Sequence record: MZ311865.1
Source: Escherichia phage vB_EcoM_LNA2
DNA length: 64,000 bases
Direction: 5' to 3' (one strand)
Shown here piece after piece: positions 19,962 to 62,797 of the stretch. The notes under the pieces were generated by a model that worked only from the letters and a program-made list of their open reading frames with translations, ran no database searches and was not told the DNA's origin. The position numbers were made by a program, and so were the translations under genes. How positions within the stretch are numbered: position 1 is the first letter of the stretch; each line of letters begins with the position of its first letter.

Positions 19962-19991
19962 ATTATACTCCATCCATCCTTGGATGTAAAA
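19962..19991 (-). promoter_or_regulatory. Early promoter cassette (TTTTAC-18-TATAAT)
   Basis: TATACTCCA.CCATCCTTGG.TGTAAA family; upstream of paralog B. Confidence 0.5.
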
Positions 19992-19993
19992 CA

Positions 19994-20488
19994 TTAATTA
20001 AGAATATTAACTACTGCACTACGTGGAACAACACTAAAATCACCAGCATGAACAACGTTAATAAGTTCAACACCATCTTCAATCCACTGGTCAGTTACCC
20101 ATCCACTCACTGGACCTGCGAACGGACGTCGAATTGAAACGGCTTTACACAACAAATCAGTAGGCTCAATAGGCTTAATCAGAGTACCGTACATACAAGC
20201 GATGTCCATATCAAAGTGGAGACCATCTTTAACAGGTGCTTCTTCAATCAAGAGTTCAAAGTCGGTGCTCGGAAGGGCAGTAGTAGAAATTGTACCGTAT
20301 GAATTTTTAATTTCTAAGAATAACCAAGGGCCTTCAACTTGTTTGATGAAGTTAACAATAGTGAAACTATTACCTTGAGTGGCACCTAAAATTTCACAAA
20401 ACTTTTCATAAGCTCGCACTGAAGCACCGTACCAATTGATTTGTTTTTCGTCTTTCAGGATGTAAGTAGCCGTAGTATTGATATTCAT
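19994..20488 (-). CDS. Paralog C (shares C-terminal domain only)
   Basis: 164 aa; C-terminal GWVTDQWIEDGVELINVVHAGDFSVVP; own promoter. Confidence 0.55.
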   Translation of the reverse strand: MNINTTATYILKDEKQINWYGASVRAYEKFCEILGATQGNSFTIVNFIKQVEGPWLFLEIKNSYGTISTTALPSTDFELLIEEAPVKDGLHFDMDIACMYGTLIKPIEPTDLLCKAVSIRRPFAGPVSGWVTDQWIEDGVELINVVHAGDFSVVPRSAVVNILN

Positions 20489-20519
20489 AATGTTTTTCCT
20501 GTTTGGTTAAGATAGAAAG

Positions 20520-20549
20520 ATTATACTCCAACCATCCTTGGTTGTAAAC
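20520..20549 (-). promoter_or_regulatory. Early promoter cassette (GTTTAC-18-TATAAT)
   Basis: Same family; upstream of paralog C. Confidence 0.6.
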
Positions 20550-20554
20550 TGCTT

Positions 20555-21232
20555 TTATCGCTGTTTTACACTTAACGGGTCAGGATTCTCAGGGACATCT
20601 TCAAGGCCAAGCGCATAACGCTGAGCATATTTTAACATCAAAATATCTTTAGCACAATCATGAATACTATCATGGGCAACGAATCCTTTTAGCGTACCCA
20701 TCGGTAATGGACACATACTTAATCCTCGTGTCAACGAGTAAGCTTCGATTGCTGTACGAATATCACGTTGAGCCCAGAATTTAACCGGTTCTAATTTATC
20801 AGTATCAATATCTGGTTCAAGAACACCTTCATCACGATAGAGGTCACGAATCAAATCGACCAAGATTGGGAAGTCAAAGCTCATACCACGGCACCACATC
20901 TGTGATTTCCATTGGTCAACTTTATTAGCTCGACAATAATCTAAAAAGATTTTAATGCCTTCAAGCGTAGTGACATCGTCTTCAGACGGAGCCAAGTTTT
21001 TACGCGCTTCAGCAGATTGTTCTTTCCACCATTTCATAGTGGATTTAGCGAAAACTCGCTTCCCTTTCTGAGAAGCTAAATTAAATTTAATTCGCTTACC
21101 TCGTTGAACAAGGTCTTCAAATGATTCAACAACTTCTGGGTCGGAATTATATGCAATAACCGCAAGGTCAATAACAGCCGCTTTTGATGTATTGCCGAAT
21201 GTTTCAAAATCTATAATAACATCAGTGCTCAT
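20555..21232 (-). CDS. dexA: Exonuclease A (DnaQ-like 3'-5' exonuclease)
   Basis: 225 aa; IDFETFG exo motif; T4 synteny next to dda. Confidence 0.85.
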   Translation of the reverse strand: MSTDVIIDFETFGNTSKAAVIDLAVIAYNSDPEVVESFEDLVQRGKRIKFNLASQKGKRVFAKSTMKWWKEQSAEARKNLAPSEDDVTTLEGIKIFLDYCRANKVDQWKSQMWCRGMSFDFPILVDLIRDLYRDEGVLEPDIDTDKLEPVKFWAQRDIRTAIEAYSLTRGLSMCPLPMGTLKGFVAHDSIHDCAKDILMLKYAQRYALGLEDVPENPDPLSVKQR

Positions 21233-21241
21233 AATTTTCTC

Positions 21242-22555
21242 TCAAATAAAATGGACGTCAAACCGGCCACGAGTTGTGCCGACATACAATAACTGTTTAG
21301 CTAATTCTGAATCGGCATAATGGATACACGGTGTATAAACAAAGGCCGTGTCAACAGACATACCCTGAGCCTTATGGAAGGTTGATACTGGTAGTGCCTT
21401 CACCTTAGTGAACATACGTTTAGCATCCCAGAATTCGCTCCATGGAGCTTTACCACCTTTATTCCAGAATTTGTATGTTTCTGCTGTCTTAGCCAAAAAC
21501 AAATTGAATTTATAAAGCTCTTCTTCAGAAGAAATAACCTTTATATCTTCACGGATGTATTCTTCATCATCCCCATATGTTTCTACTGTAAGATTCCAGT
21601 ATCGTATCATATATTCGCCTGAAACACCACGTGCTTTAACGAATGTAGACGTTTCTACAGCATCTCGAATACGAACGAATTGCCCATTATTGAAAAGCAT
21701 TTCGGTCATATTTTTACCGTCTAGCTTATATGTCTTAGTAAATGGCTCTTGTAGAACAATGACTTCGTCTTTAATAAATGGTTTTTCTGTTTCAAGAAGT
21801 TTTCGGCGAATAATTGAATTTAACTTGTCCACCGACTTATTTGTGAATGCCATCATTCGATTTTCGAAAAGGTCTTCAGGAGTTTTAACGACGTTAAAAT
21901 AGTTCATCATATACGATTTAAGGTCTGTATATCCATGAACACCGTGTCCATCAACTACTTTATCGTAAATCCATTTGCCATTACGAATATCAGTCGCAAC
22001 ATCAATAATTGGTGCATTACTACGTTTAACTTCTGTAAGGTTGCATTGCACGAAGTCTTTGTGAGTGAAGAAAGGACTTAGATACGCAGTTGATTCGCCT
22101 GGGTCTACCGGTCGAATTTGACATCGGTCGCCGATTCCAATTACTGTGCACCATTTAGGGATACTAGCTAACATTATTTTAAACAGAGAACGGTCGCACA
22201 TTGACGCTTCATCAAATAACAGTACACGACACAAGGCTAAGTCGGGAACCTTTTTCTGTTCAAACAATACGTTTTCTTCGTATGTAGTTGGGTTGATTTT
22301 AAGAATGCTATGAATAGTCGATGCTTCTTGACCTGCAAGTTTGCTTAGAACCTTTTTAGCAGCATGTGTAGGGGCTGCTAAAATAATACCTGATTCTCCA
22401 GAAGAAATAAGGGCTTCAACGATGAATCTAGTAAGGGTTGTTTTACCTGTACCAGCAGGTCCATTAATAGTTACATGATGTTTCTTTTCTTTAATAGCTT
22501 CCATAACAACGTTGAAGGCGTTTTTCTGGCCTTCAGTCAAATCATCAAATGTCAT
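21242..22555 (-). CDS. dda: Dda DNA helicase (SF1)
   Basis: 437 aa; MTFDDLTEGQKNAF...GPAGTGKTT Walker A; close to recalled T4 Dda. Confidence 0.9.
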   Translation of the reverse strand: MTFDDLTEGQKNAFNVVMEAIKEKKHHVTINGPAGTGKTTLTRFIVEALISSGESGIILAAPTHAAKKVLSKLAGQEASTIHSILKINPTTYEENVLFEQKKVPDLALCRVLLFDEASMCDRSLFKIMLASIPKWCTVIGIGDRCQIRPVDPGESTAYLSPFFTHKDFVQCNLTEVKRSNAPIIDVATDIRNGKWIYDKVVDGHGVHGYTDLKSYMMNYFNVVKTPEDLFENRMMAFTNKSVDKLNSIIRRKLLETEKPFIKDEVIVLQEPFTKTYKLDGKNMTEMLFNNGQFVRIRDAVETSTFVKARGVSGEYMIRYWNLTVETYGDDEEYIREDIKVISSEEELYKFNLFLAKTAETYKFWNKGGKAPWSEFWDAKRMFTKVKALPVSTFHKAQGMSVDTAFVYTPCIHYADSELAKQLLYVGTTRGRFDVHFI

Positions 22556-22863
22556 CGTAAAGTCCCTGCAATTGGAATACTAACAATACGGCCTGTATCC
22601 AGGATTCGTTGATACAATTTTTGCGTCTCCGCATCTAGTTTAATGTGTTTCATTTCAAGCTTATTAAACCAGAATTTACGCGGAGTTTCGACCATTCTTA
22701 GAACTCCCATTTTTAAATCTGTTTTATACTGTGTTTTCAAAGTATCGAAAACTTTATCTGCAATATCCTTTCTAAAAAATACTGCAGGACGATGCTCATC
22801 AAGTGGAACCGGGACAGTAAATCCTTCCATATCTCGATAAACTATTGCATATACATAAACCAT
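22552..22863 (-). CDS. Hypothetical protein, 103 aa (dda.1 position)
   Basis: ORF track; ATGA overlap with dda. Confidence 0.5.
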   Translation of the reverse strand: MVYVYAIVYRDMEGFTVPVPLDEHRPAVFFRKDIADKVFDTLKTQYKTDLKMGVLRMVETPRKFWFNKLEMKHIKLDAETQKLYQRILDTGRIVSIPIAGTLR

Positions 22864-22865
22864 AA

Positions 22866-23612
22866 TTAACCTTTAATCAGTTGGAATAATGATGCGCTAA
22901 GTGGTAAGCCACGTTTCAATTTTAATTTACCAATGAAACCGATCTTTTCAAAACGTTGCAGACCTTGGATAACTTTATCATATGTATCGAAAAGCGATTC
23001 AGCGTCAGTTAATTTAGTTTTAGTTTTCCAGTCAGAGCCTTTAAGAAGAACGTTGAGTTTAGTAAGTTCACGGCCTTCTGCTTGATGTGAGCCATTAATG
23101 CGTGCTTTCAAAGCAACAATTCTAAGTTTAGATTCGTTAGATAAAGGTTGATTTTTCATCATGTTCGCCATATGCTTAACACGATTTTCACGTTTTGCTC
23201 GGATTTTTAAAATAGTACCATAAACCTTTTTAATTTGGGCCCATTTCTTCTCGTCGAGATTAAGTTTCTCTACTTTACTGGCAGAAGGATTAGCGATACG
23301 TCTTGCAATGGCATCACGTTTCTCAATAAGCTCTTCTAATGTTAAATCAGAACGAGCCGTGTTATATTTTTTCTTAACTGGGATAACATTACCTTTAATG
23401 TAGCCTATATCATTATTAAAACGTTCTAAGGATAATTTCTCACCTTCAACAGAGTTATTGAAAGATTCACCTGAGTAAGCGCAGACCTTTTGATCAAGAA
23501 TGTTTTTAAGGTAATTAAAGTCTAAGTTAAAATCCTTAGAGCGCCTCTTCGCAGAAGCTCTGGTGTGGTCAAGACGACGATTGATTTTGTTAATTTTATT
23601 ATTAGATAACAT
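22866..23612 (-). CDS. srd: Srd-position protein (putative sigma-decoy), 248 aa
   Basis: Size and position between dda.1 and modA as in T4; basic, coiled-coil rich. Confidence 0.55.
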   Translation of the reverse strand: MLSNNKINKINRRLDHTRASAKRRSKDFNLDFNYLKNILDQKVCAYSGESFNNSVEGEKLSLERFNNDIGYIKGNVIPVKKKYNTARSDLTLEELIEKRDAIARRIANPSASKVEKLNLDEKKWAQIKKVYGTILKIRAKRENRVKHMANMMKNQPLSNESKLRIVALKARINGSHQAEGRELTKLNVLLKGSDWKTKTKLTDAESLFDTYDKVIQGLQRFEKIGFIGKLKLKRGLPLSASLFQLIKG

Positions 23613-23661
23613 AATATTTTCCTCTGTCTTACGGACGTTAGGTCATTTAGCTGATGGGTCT

Positions 23662-23690
23662 ATAATATCATGCCCTCAGGTAGTGTACAC
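23662..23690 (-). promoter_or_regulatory. Early-like promoter (GTGTAC-17-TATTAT) upstream of srd
   Basis: Minus strand, about 50 nt upstream of srd ATG. Confidence 0.45.
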
Positions 23691-23764
23691 TCCTTTTTCG
23701 TAAAATGCTTTAATTTTTTATGTGTTATAATGGTTCTGAGTTCCATCCGGTTATTCCAATCCAG

Positions 23765-24373
23765 TCAGTAACCGACAATAGACAGATTCCAGATTGTATA
23801 ACGTCCATCTTGAATAATAGAATCTACACGCAGTGTAGTCCCTATAGGGAGCATAAATTCACATTCGTCAGATATAAGCCTAGCATTAGACCGTCTTGTC
23901 GCTTCAGGGAAAGCTCCATTGAACTCACAAGATGGCGCAGCCAGAATCATGTTAAGCATATGTTCACGGAAGTTGAAAGCAAATGGCGCATCTTTGATGC
24001 AGAACATATTAAATGTTCCGTAAAAATTATACGAAGCAAAGTTACGTGCTACACCGAACACTGGGCTGAAGCTCATTACTCTGTCAAATTTAATAATACT
24101 ACCAATGCCTTTATCATCAAGTGTGGCCATAGTTTTCTTAGAGATTCCACGATACATTGTCTCAGGAACAGAAGATGTCCAATTTCTACGAACGATTGAA
24201 CTTAACTCCTGTTGAATACAGTCTGGCTTGTTTTCCATACACTGCCAAAGGATGCTTTGTTCATTATCGTTGAATTGACTATCAATTTCATACTGCAATT
24301 CATCTTGATATTCAGGGTTTTGAGCACGTCGAACCATTTCTTCAATTTCACACTCGTTATACGGCATAAACAT
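23765..24373 (-). CDS. modA: ADP-ribosyltransferase ModA-like
   Basis: 202 aa; YRG ... SFS ... ECEFM (R-S-E type ART motifs); paralog of next gene. Confidence 0.7.
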   Translation of the reverse strand: MFMPYNECEIEEMVRRAQNPEYQDELQYEIDSQFNDNEQSILWQCMENKPDCIQQELSSIVRRNWTSSVPETMYRGISKKTMATLDDKGIGSIIKFDRVMSFSPVFGVARNFASYNFYGTFNMFCIKDAPFAFNFREHMLNMILAAPSCEFNGAFPEATRRSNARLISDECEFMLPIGTTLRVDSIIQDGRYTIWNLSIVGY

Positions 24374-24401
24374 TTAGGTTTCTCCTGTGGTTGATAAAGG
24401 T

Positions 24402-24431
24402 ATAGTATCATCATCGGAAGAGTTTGTACAC
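24402..24431 (-). promoter_or_regulatory. Early-like promoter (GTGTAC-18-TACTAT) upstream of modA
   Basis: Minus strand. Confidence 0.45.
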
Positions 24432-25012
24432 TAAAAATTCAACATTTTCAAATGAATGATTTTGTATAATCGAGATAAAGGGTCATATTCTAAGTCTTCA
24501 ATTTCCACAATCTCAAATCTAGAGATACCTGAGACCATGTACTCTTGTTCAGATTCAATCATATCTAGGATGTCAACACGCGTTTCTTCCATAACATGCT
24601 TAGGGTTCTTTCCGGCGAGTACAATGTTAACCATGTTTTGGTAGTAATCAAAAATGAATGGAGCATTCCTGAGACTAAGAATAGTGTACGTCTGATATTC
24701 CCATCTCCCAGAGAATTGACGAGCTGTACTGAAATCAGTTGTGAATGATGTTACTCGTCCAGGAGACCAATAGCATCCAACAGAAAGAAGTGAAAGACGT
24801 TCTACTTCTTCTGGAGTTACACCACGGTAGAGTTCTACTGGTACTGTAGAAGTCATATGCTTACGAACAAGATGGTCTAATTCATAGTGGAAATCCGGGT
24901 CTTCCTTAGAATCGGTGCAAGCCCAGAGAATGTTTTGTTCTTGGCGGGTGAATTTGCTATCAATCAGATTTGTTAGGTATTCACGTTCTTGAAGTTCAGA
25001 TTGACATGTCAT
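24431..25012 (-). CDS. modB: ADP-ribosyltransferase ModB-like
   Basis: 193 aa; LYRG ... SFT ... EQEYM; paralog of modA. Confidence 0.7.
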   Translation of the reverse strand: MTCQSELQEREYLTNLIDSKFTRQEQNILWACTDSKEDPDFHYELDHLVRKHMTSTVPVELYRGVTPEEVERLSLLSVGCYWSPGRVTSFTTDFSTARQFSGRWEYQTYTILSLRNAPFIFDYYQNMVNIVLAGKNPKHVMEETRVDILDMIESEQEYMVSGISRFEIVEIEDLEYDPLSRLYKIIHLKMLNF

Positions 25013-25039
25013 GATAGACCTCCATTTAAAGATAAGCCT

Positions 25040-25068
25040 ATCATAACACGAGAGGAGGGAATGTAAAC
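25040..25068 (-). promoter_or_regulatory. Early promoter (GTTTAC-17-TATGAT) upstream of modB
   Basis: Minus strand. Confidence 0.5.
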
Positions 25069-25228
25069 TACTTTTTAAGCTTTCCTACTAAAGGTCCGTC
25101 AGGTCCAGGTTGTTCTAACATGAATAAGGATGCTTTAAAAAGCAATGTCAACCCTTTCACCATTCGATACCATGTCTCAAAGTCTTTTTCCTTGATTTCT
25201 AGTAAGAATTTCTCTTTAAATTTCTCTT

Positions 25229-25408
25229 TCATTTCCAAGGACTCCATGGTGGAGGGTCGTCATAATAAGAGGCAAGGTCTTTCAGGGCTTCAACAGGTAA
25301 ACTAAAGCCGTGACGTTGTATAATACTATCTAGTTCATCAACAAGTTCACTACGATGCACTTTAGGAGCCTCAACTTCAGGCTCATCAAACATACTCATC
25401 AAGTCCAT
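25229..25408 (-). CDS. Hypothetical acidic protein, ~59 aa
   Basis: ORF track 25229..25417 (GTG); ATG 25408 directly after upstream stop. Confidence 0.4.
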   Translation of the reverse strand: MDLMSMFDEPEVEAPKVHRSELVDELDSIIQRHGFSLPVEALKDLASYYDDPPPWSPWK

Positions 25409-25409
25409 A

Positions 25410-25874: not shown

Positions 25875-26053
25875 TATAATTTCCTCGATGGTTCACCCAT
25901 ATAAAGTTTTACAATACGTTCGCCTTCATCTTCGATGAGCTTCTCTTCGTGTTTCTGGAATTCTTTAGCCATATTCTCTTCAAGAACATCCAGCCAATCT
26001 TCTGGACCGACACCATCGTCCCAGCTTTTAAACCATTTTACTATTCTGTTCAT
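25874..26053 (-). CDS. Hypothetical protein, ~59 aa
   Basis: ORF track 25874..26080 (TTG); ATG 26053 with GGGAG SD. Confidence 0.4.
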   Translation of the reverse strand: MNRIVKWFKSWDDGVGPEDWLDVLEENMAKEFQKHEEKLIEDEGERIVKLYMGEPSRKL

Positions 26054-26250: not shown

Positions 26251-26263
26251 ACCTTCGCCTGGA

Positions 26264-26587: not shown

Positions 26588-26595
26588 TTGAATTA

Positions 26596-26832: not shown

Positions 26833-26863
26833 AATTAACTCCTTTGTTGTTTAATTACAGGTG

Positions 26864-31694: not shown

Positions 31695-31720
31695 TTTGTT
31701 CTCCAGTAGTTGATAGGTCT

Positions 31721-31749
31721 ATAATAACACAACTACTGGAGAAGTAAAC
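31721..31749 (-). promoter_or_regulatory. Early promoter (GTTTAC-17-TATTAT)
   Basis: Upstream of ORF 31377..31694; TTGATAGGTCTATAATA motif. Confidence 0.55.
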
Positions 31750-32124
31750 TTAAAAACGTAATTTAGATATATCTGCGTTGATTTCGGTTTGGTTTGCGTC
31801 GTATGCAATTAAACGAACAGCTTTAGATGGATCATTCAATGCATAGAAATGATGGAACATTGCTCGAACGATATCACCATTTACGAGTTCTACCTGGATA
31901 GGAGAACCTTTTTCGAGTTGGAAATGTTCATAGGCTTTGATGGTTCGCAGATAATCAAGTTTTTGATTTCCGGCTCCAACAATTTGTACGATACGTTTGC
32001 CCATGTTTTCCATACGAGATACAATAGTTTTAGGAGCAAGAATAACGTAGGTTGCCAGCGGAGAAACTACTTCAACAGTGGTGTTTTCGGTGATTGCAGT
32101 AAAAATTGCTTGAGACATATTCAT
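31750..32124 (-). CDS. Hypothetical protein, 124 aa
   Basis: ORF track; own early promoter. Confidence 0.5.
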   Translation of the reverse strand: MNMSQAIFTAITENTTVEVVSPLATYVILAPKTIVSRMENMGKRIVQIVGAGNQKLDYLRTIKAYEHFQLEKGSPIQVELVNGDIVRAMFHHFYALNDPSKAVRLIAYDANQTEINADISKLRF

Positions 32125-32153
32125 AATGTTTTCCTCTTGGTTTGTGTAAGTAC

Positions 32154-32183
32154 ATCATATCATGCCTAGAGGAAGATGTAAAC
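32154..32183 (-). promoter_or_regulatory. Early promoter (GTTTAC-18-TATGAT)
   Basis: Upstream of ORF 31750..32124; adjacent to gene 41 terminator. Confidence 0.5.
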
Positions 32184-32190
32184 CCCGAAA

Positions 32191-32206
32191 GGAGACCGAA
32201 GTCTCC
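32191..32206 (-). terminator. Hairpin after gene 41 (terminator-like, strand ambiguous)
   Basis: GGAGAC-UUCG-GUCUCC; the T-run is stronger on the + strand side. Confidence 0.4.
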
Positions 32207-32212
32207 TTTTTG

Positions 32213-47787: not shown

Positions 47788-47988
47788 TTATTCGTAGAAG
47801 TCGGTAACTGTCCATGCGGAATTGCGATTAGACATTATTTTATTATACTCATCTTTAAAAGCAGATTTGAGCATTTGTTCAGTAACAATATGTTCTTCAC
47901 CTGAAAACGTATTGGTCAAAACATATTTTTTAATTTCAGGGACAACGAGAAGATGTTGACCGGTTGAATACTCCATGTTGTTCTCCAT
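47788..47988 (-). CDS. Hypothetical protein, 66 aa
   Basis: ORF track. Confidence 0.45.
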   Translation of the reverse strand: MENNMEYSTGQHLLVVPEIKKYVLTNTFSGEEHIVTEQMLKSAFKDEYNKIMSNRNSAWTVTDFYE

Positions 47989-48030
47989 TTAATTTGATGT
48001 GGTCATTATAACCACATCATGTTAAAGCGT

Positions 48031-49719
48031 TTATGAAACAGTCATTACCGTAAATCGTCCAACTTTGCTCATCTGAAGATGTTGTCCATACCGTTGAGGG
48101 TCATGGTCTCGATGAGAGATAATGAACACATTAGTATTTTGTAAACTTCCAAGAATGGTATCTATAGCCTTAACAGCCTCAGAATCGACAGCACCATCAA
48201 AAACCTCATCAAGAATCAGAGTGTTGATTTTAACACCAGAGACCTTTTCAGCAATATCTCGCCATGTAAACAACAATGCGATATCGATACGTGCCTTTTC
48301 ACCTTGACTAAATGAAGCATAGCTAAAATCTTCACGACCACGTGATTTTATAGATTCATTGAATTCTTCGTCAATAGAAAACACGTAATCAGCTTCCATG
48401 ATTTTAAGATAATGATTAATCTGCTTGTTGAACAGAGGCACATATTTTTTAATGATAGCACCTTTAATACCAGAATCTTTTAACATATCTGTGATAATAC
48501 CACGATGGTATTTTTCAAGAACGATATCCGATTTTGTTTTAATGATTTTATCAAGTTCTTTTTGAAGCAAAGCTATCTCATCAGCATGGTCGATAAATTC
48601 CGCCGAGGCTTGTTCTATTGCAGCTTTAACTTTCTTAGCTTTATCAATAGTGGCAATCATTGCTTGTTTCTTGGTACGAATATCAGATGCAAGGTCCTGT
48701 TTAGTCTTAACATTAGCTCTATATTCGTCCACTAGGACACTCAGATTATCTCTGTGATAGGTAAGTTGCTCGAATGAGTGATTACATTCATGAAGCTTAT
48801 CGGTAATCTTAGAGACAATAGGATCGCCCTGATGCAACTGTGATGCACAAGTAGGACATGTACCGCCATCATGATACATCTTAATAACTTTGTTATATGA
48901 GTCAATTTTAGATTTAATCAAGAATGCTTCTTGTCCTATCTTGTTGAATGCCTCAGTAGGGTCTTCATCAAGAACGATATTAAGTAGTCGCTCATTAGCT
49001 TCTTCGATTTCTGCTTTTAATGAACGAGCTTCTTTGGCTAGGTCGTCATACATATTCTGTAGACGCGCTACATTATCACCAGATAATTTCTTTTGACGTT
49101 CGATATTCTCGTTATAAATCTTAATTTGTTGGATAATACCATCTTTCTTGGCATCGAGAACTTGTCCCTGGGAATTAAGTTCTCGAACTTGAGACTTATT
49201 GATTTTATCCATTTCAGCGAGTGTGCCGACTTCTAAAAGGTCTTCGACAAGTTTTCTACGAGCAGGGGTGCTAAGAGCCATGAAAGGGGTATACCCTGCC
49301 GTCCCAAGCACAACGATCTGTTTAAAAGACGCGTATGACATTCCGATGCTACGTTCAAATTCTTCTTGGAAGTCACGACTGCTGGCAGATTCATCAAGAC
49401 GAACACCGTCAACGGAGATTTCGAAAATATTGGGCTTTTGGCCACGTTTAATGAAGTATTTTTTATCATCGAATTCCATCCAAAGCTCAACTAAGAGCTC
49501 TTTCTTGTTCGTGCTATTAATGATTTGTCCTTTCTTAACATCACGAAATGGTTTACCGAAAAGTCCGAAAGTAATGGCTTCTAACATCGTAGATTTACCA
49601 CCGCCATTTTTACCAGTGATTAATGTCTTTTGGACTTTATCTAATTGGATATCAATAGGATTCCCACCTACCGACATGATGTTTTGATAACGAACACGAT
49701 TTAATTTAAATGATTTCAT
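48031..49719 (-). CDS. 46: Recombination nuclease subunit gp46 (SbcC/Rad50-like ATPase)
   Basis: 562 aa; Walker A GKNGGGKST, coiled-coil middle, C-terminal signature/Walker B region. Confidence 0.9.
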   Translation of the reverse strand: MKSFKLNRVRYQNIMSVGGNPIDIQLDKVQKTLITGKNGGGKSTMLEAITFGLFGKPFRDVKKGQIINSTNKKELLVELWMEFDDKKYFIKRGQKPNIFEISVDGVRLDESASSRDFQEEFERSIGMSYASFKQIVVLGTAGYTPFMALSTPARRKLVEDLLEVGTLAEMDKINKSQVRELNSQGQVLDAKKDGIIQQIKIYNENIERQKKLSGDNVARLQNMYDDLAKEARSLKAEIEEANERLLNIVLDEDPTEAFNKIGQEAFLIKSKIDSYNKVIKMYHDGGTCPTCASQLHQGDPIVSKITDKLHECNHSFEQLTYHRDNLSVLVDEYRANVKTKQDLASDIRTKKQAMIATIDKAKKVKAAIEQASAEFIDHADEIALLQKELDKIIKTKSDIVLEKYHRGIITDMLKDSGIKGAIIKKYVPLFNKQINHYLKIMEADYVFSIDEEFNESIKSRGREDFSYASFSQGEKARIDIALLFTWRDIAEKVSGVKINTLILDEVFDGAVDSEAVKAIDTILGSLQNTNVFIISHRDHDPQRYGQHLQMSKVGRFTVMTVS

Positions 49720-52833: not shown

Positions 52834-53103
52834 CTATCGGAGCAAACAATAAGCCTGAAACACTTTTTCCATTAAACGTTTGAACTCATGGATATCGATA
52901 TAAAGCTCAGTAAGACCGGCATTATAAAGAAAATCTAAAAAGTTCTCATGTGTTTCGTTATAGTCGCCTTCGTTTAATTTAGATACATGAGTTTCCCAAA
53001 AACCAACACCTTTAACGAATGGAAAATACGTGACTTTCATATATTCGTCAACATAAAATTCGCCCAGCTTTTCTTCAGTTATACTGATTCGAGTTAATTT
53101 CAT
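52834..53103 (-). CDS. Hypothetical protein, 89 aa
   Basis: ORF track. Confidence 0.45.
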   Translation of the reverse strand: MKLTRISITEEKLGEFYVDEYMKVTYFPFVKGVGFWETHVSKLNEGDYNETHENFLDFLYNAGLTELYIDIHEFKRLMEKVFQAYCLLR

Positions 53104-53327
53104 TCTAGTTCCTTTGCTGCTTCAAGAGCATCATCCAACGAATCAAATTGGTCAACGAAATCGATATTCAACGCATCGTCAGCCGTAGCATATAGCCACC
53201 ATTGTTTGAATTCATATTCTAGGATAAATCCAAGCCCTTCAATCTGAGAAAGACCTAGGCTATTTGTACCAACTTCGTAACCAGCTAGACGCAGGTCATT
53301 AATCAAAGATTCTGTTAATACGCTCAT
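53100..53327 (-). CDS. Hypothetical acidic protein, 75 aa
   Basis: ORF track; ATGA coupling. Confidence 0.45.
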   Translation of the reverse strand: MSVLTESLINDLRLAGYEVGTNSLGLSQIEGLGFILEYEFKQWWLYATADDALNIDFVDQFDSLDDALEAAKELE

Positions 53328-53656
53328 TTTACCGCCTTAACAATTTTCAGGTCAACGAATTTTTTCTTACGTTGATTTTTCATACGACGGATAGTCTTTT
53401 CAGAGATTTCATGTTTCTGATAAGCTTTAGATTCAACACCAAATGCAGCAACATCAAATTCAGAAAGAATATATTGTACTAGAATTTCACGAATAGAATT
53501 ACGTCCAATTTTCTGGTCGTGTTTTTGCATGATTTCATAAAGACGGAATTCCCACGCGTCAAGAACTTGAGGAGTAACAATATTGCCGGATTCCAGAAGA
53601 GCAACAACTTTATCGAAAGCGAAAGAATTAACTACATTTTTGATTTTAGTAGACAT
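53324..53656 (-). CDS. Hypothetical protein, ~110 aa
   Basis: ORF track 53324..53695; ATG 53656 with GAGGA SD; the 53695 ATG lies in the promoter -10. Confidence 0.45.
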   Translation of the reverse strand: MSTKIKNVVNSFAFDKVVALLESGNIVTPQVLDAWEFRLYEIMQKHDQKIGRNSIREILVQYILSEFDVAAFGVESKAYQKHEISEKTIRRMKNQRKKKFVDLKIVKAVK

Positions 53657-53693
53657 ATTATTTTCCTCGGTTATTTTATTATCCAATGAGAGC

Positions 53694-53723
53694 ATTATAC
53701 TCTGCTCTCAAGAGTTTGTGCAT
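53694..53723 (-). promoter_or_regulatory. Early-like promoter (ATGCAC-18-TATAAT), repeat copy
   Basis: 34-bp core identical to 8953-8986. Confidence 0.45.
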
Positions 53724-53962
53724 TATTCCGTGATAAGATAATGTAAATAGTTTGCTTGACGAACACTGATATCAACACCCATATCAAAGATACCTTTATA
53801 GAACGGGTATTTGTTTTCAGTAGAATCTAGACTAAAAGCCTTTCCACCACAACTAACGGTAATAGCATCAGTTAAAGTGTCATATACAAACTTAATAGTT
53901 GAGCCATTCACTACGACTTCAAGACGTTTTTTCGATGTAATAACGTCTAATTCTTGTTCCAT
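53723..53962 (-). CDS. Hypothetical protein, 79 aa
   Basis: ORF track; GAGGAA SD. Confidence 0.45.
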   Translation of the reverse strand: MEQELDVITSKKRLEVVVNGSTIKFVYDTLTDAITVSCGGKAFSLDSTENKYPFYKGIFDMGVDISVRQANYLHYLITE

Positions 53963-53982
53963 GATATTTTCCTCATTTTAAG

Positions 53983-54016
53983 ACGATAGGAAGATAATAA
54001 CATGACTTCCTATCGT
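53983..54016 (-). repeat. 11-bp inverted repeat hairpin between small early genes
   Basis: ACGATAGGAAG ... CTTCCTATCGT with 12-nt AT-rich loop. Confidence 0.6.
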
Positions 54017-54025
54017 TGTATATTA

Positions 54026-55093: not shown

Positions 55094-55242
55094 TTTATTT
55101 TCCTCTATAGTAGATGGTTTAATCTTAACACATCTATTGAGGATGTAAACTGTTTTATGAAAATATTTTTTGATTTGAGAGGGGCACAAGGAGATAGTGA
55201 AGTGAAGATTCCAATGGATTATATTAGAAATGAGATAAAGAA

Positions 55243-55261: not shown

Positions 55262-55568
55262 AATCTTCTATGATATCAGAGTCATATCCTAATGAAATCA
55301 AGGTCTTTTTAAACTCTGCAATATTCTTTTGTTTCTTATCATTTAAAAATATGACAGGATAACGAATATTAAGTGAAGTGAATCCTGCACGTTTAGCAAG
55401 AGATACGATTAAAGGACGGTCATATTCAATCTTACCATTATTAGTGAGGACTTTATAAAATGTATAAGGGGCATTGAGCTCCTTTAAAAGTTTTGTAACA
55501 GTATAACATCCTGGACAACGTCCTACTTCTTCAGGGATGCCATAAATTTCAATCTTGTTGTGTTCCAC
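55260..55568 (-). CDS. Glutaredoxin/NrdH-like redoxin
   Basis: 102 aa; CPGC redox motif near N-terminus; upstream of nrdG/nrdD; GTG start with AAGGA SD. Confidence 0.5.
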   Translation of the reverse strand: MEHNKIEIYGIPEEVGRCPGCYTVTKLLKELNAPYTFYKVLTNNGKIEYDRPLIVSLAKRAGFTSLNIRYPVIFLNDKKQKNIAEFKKTLISLGYDSDIIED

Positions 55569-55570
55569 AA

Positions 55571-55783
55571 TTATTCCTTACCAAAAACAGAATTCAGTTT
55601 ATTAGTAATTTTGTCCAAACGTTCATTGAATTCGCTGGAGGATAATCCCTTTTCCGGAGAAATTAAACTAATCACGAAAAATACAACAGTAAAAGGAATA
55701 AGAAAAATAGCTCCAACTGCCATAAACAAAAATAACGTTACAGTTGTAAGAAAATCAGCTAAACCTTTACGAAATTTATACAT
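55571..55783 (-). CDS. Small membrane protein, 70 aa
   Basis: ORF track; hydrophobic core. Confidence 0.45.
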   Translation of the reverse strand: MYKFRKGLADFLTTVTLFLFMAVGAIFLIPFTVVFFVISLISPEKGLSSSEFNERLDKITNKLNSVFGKE

Positions 55784-55893: not shown

Positions 55894-56364
55894 TTAATCA
55901 TGTTTCCACACCCCATCGGTATTTGACCAAAGTCGCTGATTATCTGATCCTCGCCACAGCTTTTTAGTCGGAAGATTTTTCTCATACTTCCCATCAATAA
56001 TAACATCAACATATTTAAGCATTTCTAGTTGTTTAATATCTTCAAACTTATATCCTGTCCACAACCAAATGCTTTTATTGGGATAAAGATTTTTTACTGT
56101 TTGAGCAATGCGATGAATAACATCTCGGTTATCAGGATAGAGAGGGTCTCCTCCGGTTATAGTTAATCCTTCTATATAATCATTATTCAAACATTCAATC
56201 AATTGTTCTAGTGTCTCTCCAGTGAATGGAATACCATTTCTAGCATTCCATGTTGATTTATTATAACACCCTTCACATTTATGCAAACAACCTGTAACGA
56301 AAAGAACGACCCTGCAACCAGGGCCATTCACAAAATCGCAAGGATAAAATCTATCATAATTCAT
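55894..56364 (-). CDS. nrdG: Anaerobic ribonucleotide reductase activase NrdG (radical SAM)
   Basis: 156 aa; Cys-rich N-terminal CDFVNGPGC...C..C..C region. Confidence 0.9.
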   Translation of the reverse strand: MNYDRFYPCDFVNGPGCRVVLFVTGCLHKCEGCYNKSTWNARNGIPFTGETLEQLIECLNNDYIEGLTITGGDPLYPDNRDVIHRIAQTVKNLYPNKSIWLWTGYKFEDIKQLEMLKYVDVIIDGKYEKNLPTKKLWRGSDNQRLWSNTDGVWKHD

Positions 56365-58648: not shown

Positions 58649-58677
58649 GATAAACCCTTACCTTAAATAGATAAGGG

Positions 58678-58685
58678 TATTTATA
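58678..58685 (-). promoter_or_regulatory. T4-type late promoter TATAAATA upstream of gene 49
   Basis: Minus-strand TATAAATA 30 nt upstream of gene 49 ATG. Confidence 0.5.
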
Positions 58686-58687
58686 AT

Positions 58688-58867
58688 TTAGTAAACGTTA
58701 TAAAAGTCTCGATGAAAACGTTTATATTGACGAATCATTTTCTTAGTAGGACGTGTTACTGAAATAATTGAAGTAGTCATAGTCGGATTGTTTGGAGCAC
58801 CAGTCATAACAAATTTCCAGGATTTTTGTCCATTTTTTCTTTCACCATAAAATAATTCAGTTTTCAT
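58688..58867 (-). CDS. Possible small protein, 59 aa (not in ORF track)
   Basis: Hand translation MKTELFYGERKNGQKSWKFVMTGAPNNPTMTTSIISVTRPTKKMIRQYKRFHRDFYNVY. Confidence 0.3.
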   Translation of the reverse strand: MKTELFYGERKNGQKSWKFVMTGAPNNPTMTTSIISVTRPTKKMIRQYKRFHRDFYNVY

Positions 58868-58876
58868 AATAAACCT

Positions 58877-59290
58877 TTAACTTAAACGTCTTTCTAAATA
58901 TTCAATGTATTCCGCTGCGGCTTGCATCAGATTACCTTCATAACCGTCATTATTTTCTTGGGCGGCTAATTTAGCTAAAGCATAAGAAATACGTTCACCT
59001 TCGAATTCGCCAAGTCCACCATCACAAACTACTTGGTCAATTTCTTCGAGTTCATCTATTGAATGGGCTTCCCAGAAGCACCAAAGAGAAGTATCACGGT
59101 CATAGATGCAAAGTTTCTCACCTGTGTTCAACATCACTTCGATAATGCCATGGTCGCCATAACCATCTTCGGTAGTAGTACCAATTACCTTGATGATTGT
59201 TCCTTTCTTTAATTCAGGAAACTTGACTTGTAGTTCTTCATCTTCTTTAACAATCTTGAACCATTTACCGCGAGTTTCAGAAATATTCAT
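58877..59290 (-). CDS. Hypothetical protein, ~137 aa
   Basis: ORF track 58877..59308 (TTG); ATG 59290 with GGAG SD. Confidence 0.45.
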   Translation of the reverse strand: MNISETRGKWFKIVKEDEELQVKFPELKKGTIIKVIGTTTEDGYGDHGIIEVMLNTGEKLCIYDRDTSLWCFWEAHSIDELEEIDQVVCDGGLGEFEGERISYALAKLAAQENNDGYEGNLMQAAAEYIEYLERRLS

Positions 59291-59415
59291 AACCATACTC
59301 CATATCAATTAATTCATTTATTGAAGGTTCATCATAACACGTTTCTTCGTCGTTGTAAACTGTTTCGACGTCTGGCTCGACTGTCTCCCATCGAGCCGAA
59401 TACCACGGTTTAACC

Positions 59416-59580
59416 GCGGAGCTTATTGAGCTCTTCATAATCAATCCAGGATTCTAGCCCAGATGGCAAATCAGATTCAATTTCCCAAAGAAGCTCTTCA
59501 ATTTTCTGAAGACGATCCAATTCTTCAACAGGAATAGTAACCATTGATGGAGCTCTTGCTGCACTAATATCGTAAATCAT
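59416..59580 (-). CDS. Possible small acidic protein, 54 aa (not in ORF track)
   Basis: Hand translation MIYDISAARAPSMVTIPVEELDRLQKIEELLWEIESDLPSGLESWIDYEELNKLRG; an acidic open frame continues downstream in another frame. Confidence 0.3.
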
Positions 59581-59582
59581 AT

Positions 59583-59798
59583 TTACCCCAGTTTAACCAT
59601 GCAATCGCCGTATTTCCATTTAGAAATAGACTTTTCGCCATTAGAATAATAAACTTCGAGTTTAGCACGATTATTTTTAATTTGAATAACCTTGGCTGTC
59701 ATCAAAGTTCCATACCCATAGTAAACTGCAACTTCATCACCTACATATACCGCGTTTCCACGGTAGTCATGGATATAATCAGTTCCTTCAAGCATCAT
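59583..59798 (-). CDS. Hypothetical protein, 71 aa
   Basis: ORF track. Confidence 0.45.
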   Translation of the reverse strand: MMLEGTDYIHDYRGNAVYVGDEVAVYYGYGTLMTAKVIQIKNNRAKLEVYYSNGEKSISKWKYGDCMVKLG

Positions 59799-60058
59799 TT
59801 AAAATATTCTCGCAGTTGATCAAATCCACCAATGTGACTTCCGTCAGGAGCAAACACTTGAGGCATAGTCAATCCAACTTGTGATTCGCGTCCAAGCTTA
59901 ACAAGAAGCTCAGTAATTTTCTCATCGTCGAACACACCTTTTTCTGGCATAACATTAATGAATTCGAACGGCTGTTTCTTAACAGTCAGCAATCGTTTCG
60001 CATTATCACAATAAATGCATTTATGAATAGTAGAGTCATACCCGTACACTTTAAACAT
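59795..60058 (-). CDS. nrdC: Thioredoxin/glutaredoxin NrdC
   Basis: ORF track 59795..60076; ATG 60058 gives MFKVYGYDSTIHKCIYCDNAKRLL... matching recalled T4 NrdC. Confidence 0.85.
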   Translation of the reverse strand: MFKVYGYDSTIHKCIYCDNAKRLLTVKKQPFEFINVMPEKGVFDDEKITELLVKLGRESQVGLTMPQVFAPDGSHIGGFDQLREYFK

Positions 60059-60464
60059 TATTTTTCCTTTCATCAATTAAATATGCAATGCCAAATACAA
60101 TACATGTAATAAAACCTGTGATACAGATAGAAACCAACAACACTGTACCAAAGAACCAAATCAAGTTATCTTTAGTAGTTTGTTTGATATCCATCTCACG
60201 AATTTCTATAGCTATCGTATCACCTTTATTCAGAAGCGTATAAAACGATGGCGATACACGCCTGTCAAAAACTCGTCCTTGCTCATCTTTATAGACTGCA
60301 ATAAATTCTAATTTAGAATATTTTCCTGTAGATTGGCCTGAGATTAATTCCACTACCTCCACAGGAATTACTTTAGTTTCCATGTAAGTATTCTGGCTGT
60401 TCCAAATGAATGGAATAATAGCAAAAACTAAAGCTGTGATAAAACAACGAAGGCTATATCTCAT
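60051..60464 (-). CDS. Membrane protein, 137 aa
   Basis: ORF track; N- and C-terminal TM segments. Confidence 0.5.
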   Translation of the reverse strand: MRYSLRCFITALVFAIIPFIWNSQNTYMETKVIPVEVVELISGQSTGKYSKLEFIAVYKDEQGRVFDRRVSPSFYTLLNKGDTIAIEIREMDIKQTTKDNLIWFFGTVLLVSICITGFITCIVFGIAYLIDERKNNV

Positions 60465-60769
60465 TATAATGTTCTCTCAAATTTGTGGAAGCATTTACGG
60501 CATTTCAATTTCAAGTTATCAGTGGTCCAGTTAACCAGTTGGACTTGGATAGTTCCACATTCCGGACATGGATGTTTTGCTGCCGATTTGGCAGCATTTT
60601 CACGTCGTTCAACCATTTTCATTATTTCGTTCCATGCCGGAGGAACAAACTCTTCTTCACCGTGGATTTTATCTCGCTGAACAAATTCAATCTTTGAACT
60701 ATCGTCAATAAACTTAACCAAGCCATGATTAGTGCTCATACCAATATCCTCTAAAAGACGTAGTTTCAT
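60464..60769 (-). CDS. Zinc-ribbon protein, 101 aa
   Basis: ORF track; CPECG ... CRKC. Confidence 0.5.
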   Translation of the reverse strand: MKLRLLEDIGMSTNHGLVKFIDDSSKIEFVQRDKIHGEEEFVPPAWNEIMKMVERRENAAKSAAKHPCPECGTIQVQLVNWTTDNLKLKCRKCFHKFERTL

Positions 60770-61719
60770 TATAACACCTCAATGGCATTTCGTAAACCAT
60801 CCGCTTTCGCATTCAGAGCTTTTAACGATTTAGTTTGTTCTGCAATCTGGGCTTCGACTTCTTTCAGACGAGATTTGAGATATTCGCGTTCTTCTCTTAA
60901 GTTATCAACTTTTTCTGCTTTAGGCTCTTTAATAGGCTTAGGCTTATACTCGTTAGGGTTCTTCAACTTAATTTGAATGCGAGAACTGTATAACATTGAA
61001 CCATTATCTTCGGTTTCATCATACATTTCTACCACGTCCATGATTCTTAACATCATGCGAAGTTTATAAGACAGCGAACGAATGGTTTTATTGTGCTTCT
61101 TAATTTCTTCAGCTTTCATGGTGCCGAGATTACGTGAGTAATAATAAGGAACCTGAATATCAATTGATAATGATGCGGTACCATTACCGGTTGGTTTGAA
61201 CACTGCAGTAACCCAATCTTTAGCATGAACTGTATTTGTACGATCATCGCCGCCTGTGAATAATTTACGAGAATGTTTAAAAAGCATATTCACTTGGTTA
61301 TTGAATTCACAAGCAAATTTATCAACAAATTTAGTTTCAGGAATGGTAGATAACCAATCAGCCAAATGAGTCTTTTTAACATCGTTAATAATAGTAAATT
61401 CAACCAAATCGGTTTTAGATGTCACAGATTTAATAAAGCTCGGCTTCATAAAGTTTTTAATGTTATCGCGAGCTACAGTAGAAGATAATAAACGAGAACG
61501 TTTGAACCATTGAAGCAGTGTCCCTAATGAATGAGAATACGCATTCTGAGTATCTTTACAGATATGATTTTCTTGGCCTGTGTATGTACCAAAATCGCGA
61601 AGAATACCACTTACTACAACTCGGTGTGGAACATCAAATCCTAATGAACCAGAAGCACGTTGGGCATGAACGTTAGCGATAAGACCTGCAAAGTATTCAA
61701 TGTAATGTGAACGTGTCAT
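60769..61719 (-). CDS. Hypothetical protein with C-terminal coiled coil, 316 aa
   Basis: ORF track; heptad-like C-terminus; own promoter cassette. Confidence 0.5.
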   Translation of the reverse strand: MTRSHYIEYFAGLIANVHAQRASGSLGFDVPHRVVVSGILRDFGTYTGQENHICKDTQNAYSHSLGTLLQWFKRSRLLSSTVARDNIKNFMKPSFIKSVTSKTDLVEFTIINDVKKTHLADWLSTIPETKFVDKFACEFNNQVNMLFKHSRKLFTGGDDRTNTVHAKDWVTAVFKPTGNGTASLSIDIQVPYYYSRNLGTMKAEEIKKHNKTIRSLSYKLRMMLRIMDVVEMYDETEDNGSMLYSSRIQIKLKNPNEYKPKPIKEPKAEKVDNLREEREYLKSRLKEVEAQIAEQTKSLKALNAKADGLRNAIEVL

Positions 61720-61747
61720 AATATTTTCCTCTCGTTAAGATAGATTC

Positions 61748-61777
61748 ATTATACTCCAACCATCCTTGGTTGTAAAC
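61748..61777 (-). promoter_or_regulatory. Early promoter cassette (GTTTAC-18-TATAAT)
   Basis: Same family as 20520-20549; upstream of ORF 60769..61719. Confidence 0.6.
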
Positions 61778-61781
61778 TGAT

Positions 61782-62741
61782 TTATGATTTTAATGCATTC
61801 ATTGCGTTAAAAAGTTTAGAGTACTGTAACTGGAGATTCGTTACAACACTTTGAGCATCACGAAGCTTAGCTTGTGCTTTGTCAAGTTCAACAGACAGTT
61901 GGTCCATAGTGGCCTTGATTTGATTGTAATGGTAATCTTCGGCCGGAAGAAGGTCATTAGAAACATTTAGTTTTACTGCAGACAGTTTGCACACATTTGG
62001 CAAACCTTTAAACATTGATTTACCCGAAGTAGAATAAGCACTTAGGACTTCGGCCTGTTCAATTGGGGTCCCAGTAAGCGATGCTTCAAACAATGCATTT
62101 TCCTTTTTAAGATTTTGATAGTATTCAGAGTCTTTGTGCCACCATGGCGCAGGAACCTTTTTACCAATAGATACACGAGCCTGGATAGCGATATTGCCCT
62201 TATTCTTGATAGGGTCAATAATATTAAGCTCACGAGAATAAATCGCTTTAATCTGGTGGATATTATCGCCTAAAACTTCCAGTGCTTGGTGGAATACACG
62301 AGCAACGTTATCATTCTTAGGATTATATGTAAGAGTGAACTCGTTCTCACTGATAACCATGATTTCTAACTTATCGTAAGTATATTTCAAATGTTTCATG
62401 TTAATTGCTTGAGGACGAATACGAGAAGCAATGGCCATCAGATTGTTAAGGTTATTTCGGAACTGTTTAGCGAAATATTGTCCTTCACCGCCGATACAAA
62501 AATTACGAAGTTTCTGTTTGGCTAATAAACGGCTGAACTCACCATTTTTAATGAACTCTTTAACGGGTGTGTTAGTAATGCATTCAAATTGAGTAAACAT
62601 ACGAGAATTAATCCCATAATATGAACAGATTTCCTCAATCTCTTCAGGAGTCTTTACAGGCATACGGATAGGATTAGGTCCTGGGGTATATGCGTTCGAG
62701 GTAAATTCTTTGATAAGTTCTCTACGTGTAATAAAAGCCAT
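61782..62741 (-). CDS. Hypothetical protein with C-terminal coiled coil, 319 aa
   Basis: ORF track; own promoter cassette. Confidence 0.5.
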   Translation of the reverse strand: MAFITRRELIKEFTSNAYTPGPNPIRMPVKTPEEIEEICSYYGINSRMFTQFECITNTPVKEFIKNGEFSRLLAKQKLRNFCIGGEGQYFAKQFRNNLNNLMAIASRIRPQAINMKHLKYTYDKLEIMVISENEFTLTYNPKNDNVARVFHQALEVLGDNIHQIKAIYSRELNIIDPIKNKGNIAIQARVSIGKKVPAPWWHKDSEYYQNLKKENALFEASLTGTPIEQAEVLSAYSTSGKSMFKGLPNVCKLSAVKLNVSNDLLPAEDYHYNQIKATMDQLSVELDKAQAKLRDAQSVVTNLQLQYSKLFNAMNALKS

Positions 62742-62767
62742 TTTATATTCCTCATGTTGAAAAATTT

Positions 62768-62797
62768 ATTATACTCCAACCATCCCTGGTTGTACAT
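62768..62797 (-). promoter_or_regulatory. Early promoter cassette (ATGTAC-18-TATAAT)
   Basis: Same family; upstream of ORF 61782..62741. Confidence 0.5.

Follow-up and report, generated by a model that had tools for sequence, protein, structure and literature searches.

Repeated, probable early promoter cassettes at sites of accessory gene gain and loss in the Mosigvirus-type phage vB_EcoM_LNA2

Escherichia phage vB_EcoM_LNA2 (sequence record MZ311865.1) carries two families of short, near-identical repeats, which we call unit 1 and unit 2, in the 64,000-nucleotide stretch of its genome analyzed here (the window). We found that these units are very probably sigma-70 early promoter cassettes of the promoter-early stem-loop (PeSL) type, with recombination between them deleting or inserting accessory genes. 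By analogy, this modular shuffling appears to be of the kind known from the PeSLs of other T4-type phages. A 4-kb stretch around the first repeat, used as a probe, showed 96-99% identity to RB69/HX01-type coliphages (genus Mosigvirus), and the window reads as the early region of an RB69/HX01-like Mosigvirus, with its early genes on the minus strand.

Unit 1 is a 29-nt sequence, TTATACTCCAACCATCCTTGGTTGTAAAC as read on the plus strand, that is present in four copies (two exact and two with 3 mismatches); in 100 dinucleotide shuffles, it was never matched. A preliminary description of this DNA had reported the same four copies, and the match search bore out both the sequence and its recurrence. 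The starts given there, which we retain as names for the copies (19962, 20520, 61748, and 62768), lie 1 nt below the measured ones, and the strand quoted there was not the functional one, which is the minus strand. Unit 2 is an exact 34-mer found twice, at 8953-8986 and 53686-53719, just as had been described, with a chance expectation of 0 in shuffled sequence. An independent repeat search recovered both families, as D2 and D10. The six copies are given below, where Pe numbers denote the orthologs among the 58 early promoter predictions that Nolan et al. (2006; PMC1524935, Additional file 3) made for RB69.

19963-19991, minus strand: unit 1, copy 19962; 3 mismatches; TTTACA-N17-TATAAT; spacer palindrome in a compensated variant, CATCCA-AGGA-TGGATG; precedes a motB homolog (ATG at 19931); RB69 Pe:8387.
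20521-20549, minus strand: unit 1, copy 20520; 0 mismatches; GTTTACA-N17-TATAAT; spacer palindrome CAACCA-AGGA-TGGTTG; between dexA and the open reading frame (ORF) at 19994..20488 (RB69 "motB.1"); RB69 Pe:8947.
61749-61777, minus strand: unit 1, copy 61748; 0 mismatches; hairpin at 61757-61772 in the spacer; precedes nrdC.3 (60769..61719); RB69 Pe:51019.
62769-62797, minus strand: unit 1, copy 62768; 3 mismatches; TGTACA as the -35 element; palindrome differing only in the loop (GGGA); precedes nrdC.5 (61782..62741); RB69 Pe:52042.
8955..8989, minus strand: unit 2 cassette; TGTACA-N17-TATAAT; 7-bp stem GAGAGCA/TGCTCTC (8955-8976) around the -10 element; upstream of ndd (8470..8916).
53688..53722, minus strand: unit 2 cassette, copy 53694; TGCACA-N17-TATAAT; -10 element enclosed by a 7-bp stem (53688-53709) identical to that of the 8955 copy; upstream of a gp55.2 homolog (ATG at 53656); RB69 Pe:42515.

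Cassettes of one subfamily precede unrelated genes that lie up to 45 kb apart, and about 20 to 25 other early promoter cassettes in the window have unrelated spacers. Within unit 1, the core is identical at 25 to 29 of 29 positions among copies. Copies 20520 and 61748 match at 29/29 positions, and their likeness runs ~14-20 nt further downstream through a common leader, TCTATCTTAAC. Copies 19962 and 62768 are instead alike for ~25 nt upstream, sharing 19 of the 25 nt before the -35 element. The two cassette types are arranged as A-gene-B at the motB locus and as B-gene-A at the nrdC locus. The stretch common to the second pair (19991-20015 and 62797-62821, minus strand) encodes the last ~8 codons of two unrelated genes, ending in VVNILN-stop and VVKLLKE-stop, which suggests a past exchange with a boundary inside coding regions.

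Taken on the minus strand, the sequence of unit 1 is GTTTACA ACCAAGGATGGTTGGAG TATAAT, that is, a T4-type -35 element, a 17-nt spacer, and a perfect -10 element. The spacer measures 17 nt in every one of the six unit copies, which score 10 to 11 of 12 in a generic consensus scan and rank at the top of their regions; TG directly before the -10 element was found in none of the six. The upstream stop codon lies 0-6 nt from the -35 element, the 25 nt upstream are 64-84% A+T, and the ATG follows the -10 element at 26-31 nt in unit 1 and at 37-44 nt in unit 2. When the window was scanned strictly for T4-type promoters, 19 sites emerged on the minus strand and 2 on the plus strand; all of them have a Shine-Dalgarno sequence (SD) and an ATG downstream. 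When the RB69 predictions were mapped onto the window, 19 of the 20 that could be mapped in the span coincided with independently called cassettes, among them the orthologs of all four unit 1 copies and of one unit 2 copy (53694). The T4 GenBank record has no annotated promoter features. The genes behind the unit copies are homologs of the T4 early genes motB, ndd, nrdC.x, and 55.2, and a transcriptome/proteome paper lists MotB as an early protein in T4. Because the sequence features and the earlier RB69 predictions agree, the identification of the units as early promoters, already proposed in the preliminary description, is well supported, and they would be sigma-70-dependent, of T4 type, and read on the minus strand.

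Each cassette would therefore be read in the order upstream stop codon, A/T-rich stretch, -35 element (G)TTTACA, 17-nt spacer, TATAAT, 26-44 nt leader, SD, and ATG. Host RNA polymerase would initiate ~7 nt past the -10 element directly after infection, and since it would start at each cassette, each small accessory gene would have its own transcription start. A CTATC motif stands 4-9 nt past the -10 element, near the expected transcription start, in many cassettes (6333, 6655, 20520, 31149, 31721, 53994, and 61748; for example, AGACCTATCA, CTTTCTATC, and GAATCTATC). In total, the window holds 27 cassettes. They form groups at 6-10, 18-26, 30-32, and 53-63 kb and leave the replication gene block at 33-53 kb free.

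To follow gene content at these sites, we compared the entire window with ESCO47, mobillu, and RB69 by alignment and read the junctions of AV110 and NHEP36 directly. The genes, segments, and additional cassettes involved were as follows.

61782..62741, minus strand: nrdC.5 homolog, between copies 62768 and 61748; missing from AV110 and ESCO47.
19994..20488, minus strand: motB.1-type gene (phrog_2333), between copies 20520 and 19962; missing from NHEP36.
18972..18999, minus strand: cassette of another subfamily, in a 12-bp hairpin with the SD in the 3' arm; RB69 Pe:7443.
18999..19983: 983-bp segment missing from ESCO47, with cassette 18972 at its left end and unit 1 copy 19962 at its right end.
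31721-31748 and 32154-32182, minus strand: cassettes bracketing the ORF at 31750..32124; RB69 Pe:20537 and Pe:20971.
53994..54022, minus strand: cassette that, together with unit 2 copy 53694, brackets the ORF at 53723..53962; RB69 Pe:42816.
55122..55149, minus strand: cassette at which ESCO47 has an extra 432-bp gene module, with cassettes at both flanks of the module; RB69 Pe:43945.

The preliminary description had tied the repeats to variable gene content, and we found relatives that lack exactly the gene between two copies, with the crossover inside the repeat. In AV110, the ATGTACA -35 side of copy 62768 is joined, within the common spacer, to the -10 element and leader of copy 61748. In NHEP36, the 3' end of dexA and the GTTTACA of copy 20520 are joined to the CATCCA/TGGATG spacer and the leader of copy 19962. 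ESCO47 lacks 31729..32177, with both ends in the cassettes at 31721-31748 and 32154-32182, and also lacks 53719..54016, with its ends again in cassettes, one of them unit 2. Altogether, five gene-sized insertions or deletions (indels) have both ends in cassettes, and their junctions are chimeric, in-register promoters. Cassette cores make up 1.7% of the region; of the seven clean segments that are extra in the window, five end in such cores on both sides (P ~5e-5 for at least five of seven under a conservative, junction-based null). A strict automatic count gave four of seven; the fifth, in NHEP36, was masked by overlapping BLAST segments and was confirmed from the junction sequence.

Since the cassettes are direct repeats around dispensable genes, the intervening gene could be deleted precisely. 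Short-homology recombination or template switching between two cassettes would remove the gene between them and leave a single promoter that is hybrid yet intact; the reverse reaction would insert a promoter-plus-gene module. Promoter copies that are not neighbors also appear to have exchanged sequence. The nrdC.3 promoter of RB69 (L133; 50969-51019) has the leader CTTTCTATC, as in the copy at the motB.1 locus, where the window has GAATCTATC (61735-61776); this looks like ectopic conversion between promoter copies ~42 kb apart. One cassette family stands before different genes in T4, Mosigvirus, and JS98-like phages, and, with the RB69 leader, this suggests exchange between unlinked promoter copies. 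The T4 promoter upstream of motB (T4 ~7159-7199) provides an example. It belongs to the unit 2 family, GTTTACAAACTCTTG-GGACCA-GAGTATAAT-GGTCCC, sharing the spacer and -10 element of unit 2 and maintaining the stem around the -10 element by compensatory changes. The unit 2 family thus precedes motB in T4 and ndd and gp55.2 in the window, where the motB-type genes are instead found behind unit 1; therefore, promoter family and gene have not been inherited together. Collectively, these comparisons support the view that the repeats are substrates for recombination that shuffles accessory genes.

Both units can form a hairpin. In unit 1, CAACCA-AGGA-TGGTTG gives a 6-bp stem with a 4-nt loop that spans the end of the -35 element and the spacer (-6.6 to -7.8 kcal/mol). 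In unit 2, GAGAGCA-GAGTATAA-TGCTCTC gives a stem of 7-8 bp with the -10 element in the loop (-12.6 kcal/mol). The minimum free energy (MFE) z score averaged -1.5 over 25 cassettes and was below -2 in 11 of them; it was -3.6 for the 8955 copy and -3.2 for the 53688 copy of unit 2. To assess conservation, we searched IMG/VR. A loose pattern, TTTACA-N12-TGGAGTATAAT, returned mostly unrelated contigs among the matches listed, so tighter patterns were used. The unit 2 pattern CAAACTCTTG-N6-GAGTATAAT matched T4, a T4-like phage, Mosigvirus, and JS98-like genomes, giving a set of 39 matches with 17 distinct 41-mers. Over these 17 distinct sequences, 99.2% of the cells of the 7-bp stem are paired, and four of the seven pairs show changes on both sides. 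Only 1 of 119 cells is a non-pair, and G-U intermediates are tolerated. None of 500 shuffles reached this degree of pairing, and slid registers fell far below it. Across ~30 contexts in Mosigvirus and JS98-like phages, the arms of unit 1 occur in only two types, with A-T or T-A at one pair, and the two arms always match save in ESCO47. Among phage records, unit 1 is present in 176, at ~3 places per genome, in Mosigvirus and JS98/IME08-like phages, and unit 2 in 409, which include Tequatrovirus. The stem-loops would most likely act on read-through transcripts that come from cassettes upstream, by attenuation or insulation. RegB processing at the GGAG in the unit 1 spacer was considered and dropped; the motif is missing from unit 2.

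The cassettes closely resemble the PeSLs of RB49 and phi1 (Arbiol, Comeau, Kutateladze, Adamia, and Krisch 2010; PMC2839356), which likewise combine a stop codon, an A/T-rich stretch, sigma-70-type -35 and -10 elements, a stem-loop, an SD, and an ATG, occur as tandem repeats between small accessory ORFs, and contain the crossovers of gene-sized indels. In that study, the commonest position of the stem is between the -35 and -10 elements or overlapping the -10 element; the stems of units 1 and 2 lie in just these positions, so that the likeness to PeSLs drawn in the preliminary description stands. The RB49 elements differ in having TTGACA and G/C-rich GGGG...CCCC stems, whereas those described here have TTTACA or TGTACA and short stems of 6-7 bp with no T-run. 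One RB49 stem lowered the expression of a reporter placed after it to an extent similar to that of the rrnB T1 terminator, and mini-circles as well as promoter and terminator activity were measured in RB49.

Similarly, the PeSLs of T4 and PST (Comeau, Arbiol, and Krisch 2014; PMC4122927) share with our cassettes the consensus of the T-even pair, TTTACW-N17-TAYWAT, and those of T4/PST and KVP40/nt-1 share the association with indels in hyperplastic regions. The AGNA-loop-TCNT stems described there match the TAGGACTA/TAGTCCTA subfamily of the window, at 9222, 9734, and 30408. PST stems lie just upstream of the promoter, whereas those of units 1 and 2 lie inside it. RB69-like phages were outside that analysis, and our literature search found no paper that links PeSLs with RB69-type phages. 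In RB69, Nolan, Petrov, Bertrand, Krisch, and Karam (2006; PMC1524935) noted that many early promoters precede novel ORFs. Their promoters are individual predictions: the terms hairpin and stem-loop have 0 occurrences in that paper, and it describes neither subfamilies with shared spacers nor recombination at promoters. In the window, the cassette layout, the stem position, the clustering in hyperplastic regions, and, by comparison with relatives, the crossovers inside cassettes all agree with the sequence-level definition of a PeSL. Thus, these repeats are a known kind of element, recognized here in a lineage for which it had not been made explicit before. Our additions are modest: nucleotide-level hybrid junctions in natural Mosigvirus isolates and quantified covariation of the stem around the -10 element.

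Several observations weigh against this interpretation. Promoter activity is a prediction, drawn from consensus and from orthology to promoters that were themselves predicted. The unit 1 hairpin is weak, and the MFE z scores of unit 1 cassettes are not significant (-0.4 to -1.5). Because folding energy alone gives this hairpin no support, the case for conservation of the unit 1 stem relies on the single compensated pair and is weak; in addition, the stem is mismatched in ESCO47, and T-to-C variants open its closing pair. Both hairpins lack a following T-run, and terminator-like sites were not called at units 1 and 2, so that the terminator role of PeSLs is not supported for them. Two of the seven deletions (52839..53112 and 58684..58877) are away from cassettes, as are an insertion at 55563-55578 and the insertions of homing endonuclease genes. 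The enrichment of indel ends in cassettes may partly reflect selection, because indels are tolerated only at dispensable genes, where early promoters are dense. Finally, the sequence shared at crossovers is just 5-25 nt, and ~50 bp is quoted for efficient homologous recombination in T4 (Arbiol et al. 2010; PMC2839356). Since the shared sequence is shorter than this, the pathway may be slippage or illegitimate recombination; short-homology recombination and template switching are candidates too, in place of the classical homologous pathway.

The stem around the -10 element is conserved by compensatory change in three T-even genera, and the hybrid junctions are in register, which leaves room for an active system of cassette exchange. 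In such a system, the stems would be a selected, structure-specific signal, and exchange would proceed via a hairpin or cruciform and a structure-specific phage enzyme (e.g., endonuclease VII or gp46/47); alternatively, the signal would act as an RNA insulator. We consider this unlikely. If it were true, promoter-plus-gene modules would be excised and inserted at defined points, somewhat like attC hairpins in integrons, or, for the insulator, a hairpin in read-through RNA would render every module transcriptionally autonomous.

A further explanation is that the stems are not selected at all. Template switching in the hairpin (quasi-palindrome correction) would keep the arms matched, and the promoters would drift in concert via occasional conversion. 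Templated quasi-palindrome correction is reportedly a classic mutational pathway of T4, known from the rII system through Ripley and co-workers, and the compensated variants do come as whole arm pairs with few intermediates. However, tolerance of G-U pairs and a near absence of non-pairs are typical of selection at the RNA level, z scores below -2 are found in 11 of the 25 cassettes, and the hairpins are consistently placed around the -10 element or paired to the SD. We therefore judge it quite improbable that the stems are unselected.

The near invariance of the unit 1 arms over ~30 contexts, with the sole arm change matched on the opposite side (A-T to T-A), would also be expected if the repeats were purely functional, the spacer palindrome being an operator for a phage or host regulator of a subset of early promoters and the indel junctions being incidental. 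The mechanism by which T4 early promoters are shut off is, moreover, incompletely understood (Uzan and Miller 2010). However, the arms of unit 2 vary freely with pairing kept, which argues for a structure rather than a sequence-specific operator, and the window has ~20 further early promoters with unrelated spacers. An operator also leaves the chimeric junctions unexplained. We know of no T-even protein that binds a promoter spacer, which counts against an operator as well; the review by Hinton (2010) contains nothing to contradict this. Such a purely regulatory role is, in our estimate, very unlikely.

We next consider whether the repeats could be remnants of tandem duplication of a promoter with its gene, with no part in later rearrangement. 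The motB locus fits this in part: the three genes at 19005-20488 are paralogs that have a C-terminal domain of MotB type in common (blastp E = 5e-30, 4e-9, and 2e-10; phrog_1671/2333; DNA repeat family D3), and copies 19962 and 20520 stand before two of the three. However, nrdC.3, nrdC.5, and nrdC.6 have no mutual blastp similarity and fall into three different PHROGs, yet they have cassettes in common; the idea that the three ~320-aa nrdC.x genes are paralogs was accordingly rejected. Likewise, ndd and gp55.2 are unrelated, yet both are behind unit 2. The promoter cores are identical at 25-29/29 positions, versus 41-62% over part of their length for the paralogous proteins. The exact match of copy 20520 is the unlinked copy 61748, not its neighbor 19962, and the hybrid junctions in relatives represent later exchange. 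Tandem duplication is thus largely refuted for the nrdC and unit 2 loci, and as a general account it is highly improbable. Convergence on an optimal promoter sequence, with neither common origin nor exchange, is hardly credible: T4 early promoters do have conserved positions beyond the -35 and -10 elements (Hinton 2010; Nolan 2006, PMC1524935), but identity at 17/17 spacer positions together with the common leader TCTATCTTAAC, or a shared stretch of 25 upstream nucleotides that reaches into the preceding ORF, exceeds any consensus and already contradicts it, and equally good promoters elsewhere in the window differ along the whole spacer. Gene duplication and convergence therefore fail to explain the repeats, because the genes served are not paralogs (the motB trio excepted) and because identity extends beyond the consensus.

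Recombination between PeSL-type promoter cassettes, the interpretation that we favor, reveals no new kind of element. It does offer a nucleotide-level view of how promoter-plus-gene modules are gained and lost, with their neighbors undisturbed, in RB69-like phages that serve as therapeutic and model coliphages. It should aid the reading of gene content differences among hundreds of sequenced Mosigvirus genomes, help to predict dispensable genes, and indicate insertion sites that are safe for engineering. In addition, the covarying stem that encloses the -10 element is a mutable target with which to address the function of the PeSL stem, a question left by the original papers.

Other hairpins at promoters in the window are of different design. 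At 32183-32210 and 56304-56329 (minus strand), G+C-rich hairpins followed by T-runs (GGAGACTTCGGTCTCC-TTT and GAATGGCCCTGGTTGCAGGGTCGTTC-TTTT) abut the next -35 element; by sequence, these have the classical terminator-plus-promoter form of a PeSL, unlike units 1 and 2. At 18945-19000 and 31695-31750 (minus strand), early promoters lie within hairpins of 12-13 bp (MFE z scores of -6.2 and -4.5), whose 5' arm comes after the -35 element, whose loop holds the -10 element, and whose 3' arm includes the SD. Transcripts from the internal promoter would miss the 5' arm, and read-through transcripts would have the SD paired. ESCO47 retains the 18945-19000 stem by compensatory changes (CTCTGG/CCAGAG to CTCTAG/CTAGAG). 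In T4 gene e, soc, and I-TevI, long transcripts have the ribosome-binding site paired, and transcripts that start at a promoter within the hairpin leave it free. Cassettes 18972 and 31721, with the layout just given, resemble gene e, soc, and I-TevI; the known cases, however, use late or middle promoters, and the stems of units 1 and 2 leave the SD unpaired. A related case, mobE, is cited by Uzan and Miller (2010).

Two more sites are related to the units. The promoter at 24395-24445 (minus strand; RB69 Pe:12829) begins with TGTACAAACTCTT, as unit 2 does, and diverges after it, and is for this reason a third, partial unit 2 relative in the window. It forms the left end of a segment (24440..25235, modB included) in place of which ESCO47 has 82 bp. 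The preliminary description had also placed a degenerate fifth copy of unit 1 near 63828. The sequence there (63828-63853, minus strand), GCTTTACCCAAGGACGGGTTATAAT, lies upstream of nrdC.6, reads GCTTTA-N13-TATAAT, and has CCAAGGAnGG and TATAAT in common with unit 1. No unit 1 match with 3 or fewer mismatches was found at this site, and with only 12 nt between TTTAC(C) and the -10 element, it cannot act as a -35/-10 promoter; it was thus ruled out as a fifth early promoter copy. Middle promoters of T4 follow the pattern of a MotA box, 11-13 nt, and a -10 element, and the site is on neither the early (Pe) nor the middle (Pm) promoter list for RB69 (Nolan 2006; PMC1524935). Because of its absence from the middle promoter list, a MotA-type middle promoter, predicted from the geometry, is only a suggestion. 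The site may also be a relative of the "PmSL" variants that exist on middle promoters (PMC4122927) or a decayed early promoter.

By the annotations of HX01, RB69, ESCO47, and mobillu, the plus strand of the window carries 37-38-t. The minus strand continues after t with asiA ... motA, 52, ndd, rIIB, rIIA, 39, cef, and the motB cluster, then dexA, dda, srd, modA/B ... 41, uvsX, 43, 45, 46, and 47, and finally 55, nrdD, 49, nrdC, and nrdC.2-nrdC.6. GC skew is negative throughout, which fits coding on the minus strand, and no Rfam family was found anywhere in the window. Positions 1-6600, which hold the tail fiber genes 37/38 and asiA to motA, differ most from ESCO47 and mobillu (identity of 68-79%, or replacement), which would be expected of host range and anti-defense modules. 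Away from the cassettes, HX01 has a 674-bp HNH homing endonuclease gene at 17034-17049, next to gene 39, and ESCO47 has an 812-bp homing endonuclease insert at 47968-48042, next to gene 46; because such insertions miss the promoter cassettes, they indicate a second, independent route of gene gain in the region. At 19434-19994 (minus strand), a mechanically called ORF of 186 aa crosses promoter copy 19962; its true start is almost certainly the ATG at 19931, after AGAGAGAAAAAAT, and some database records annotate a tiny extra ORF around this position.

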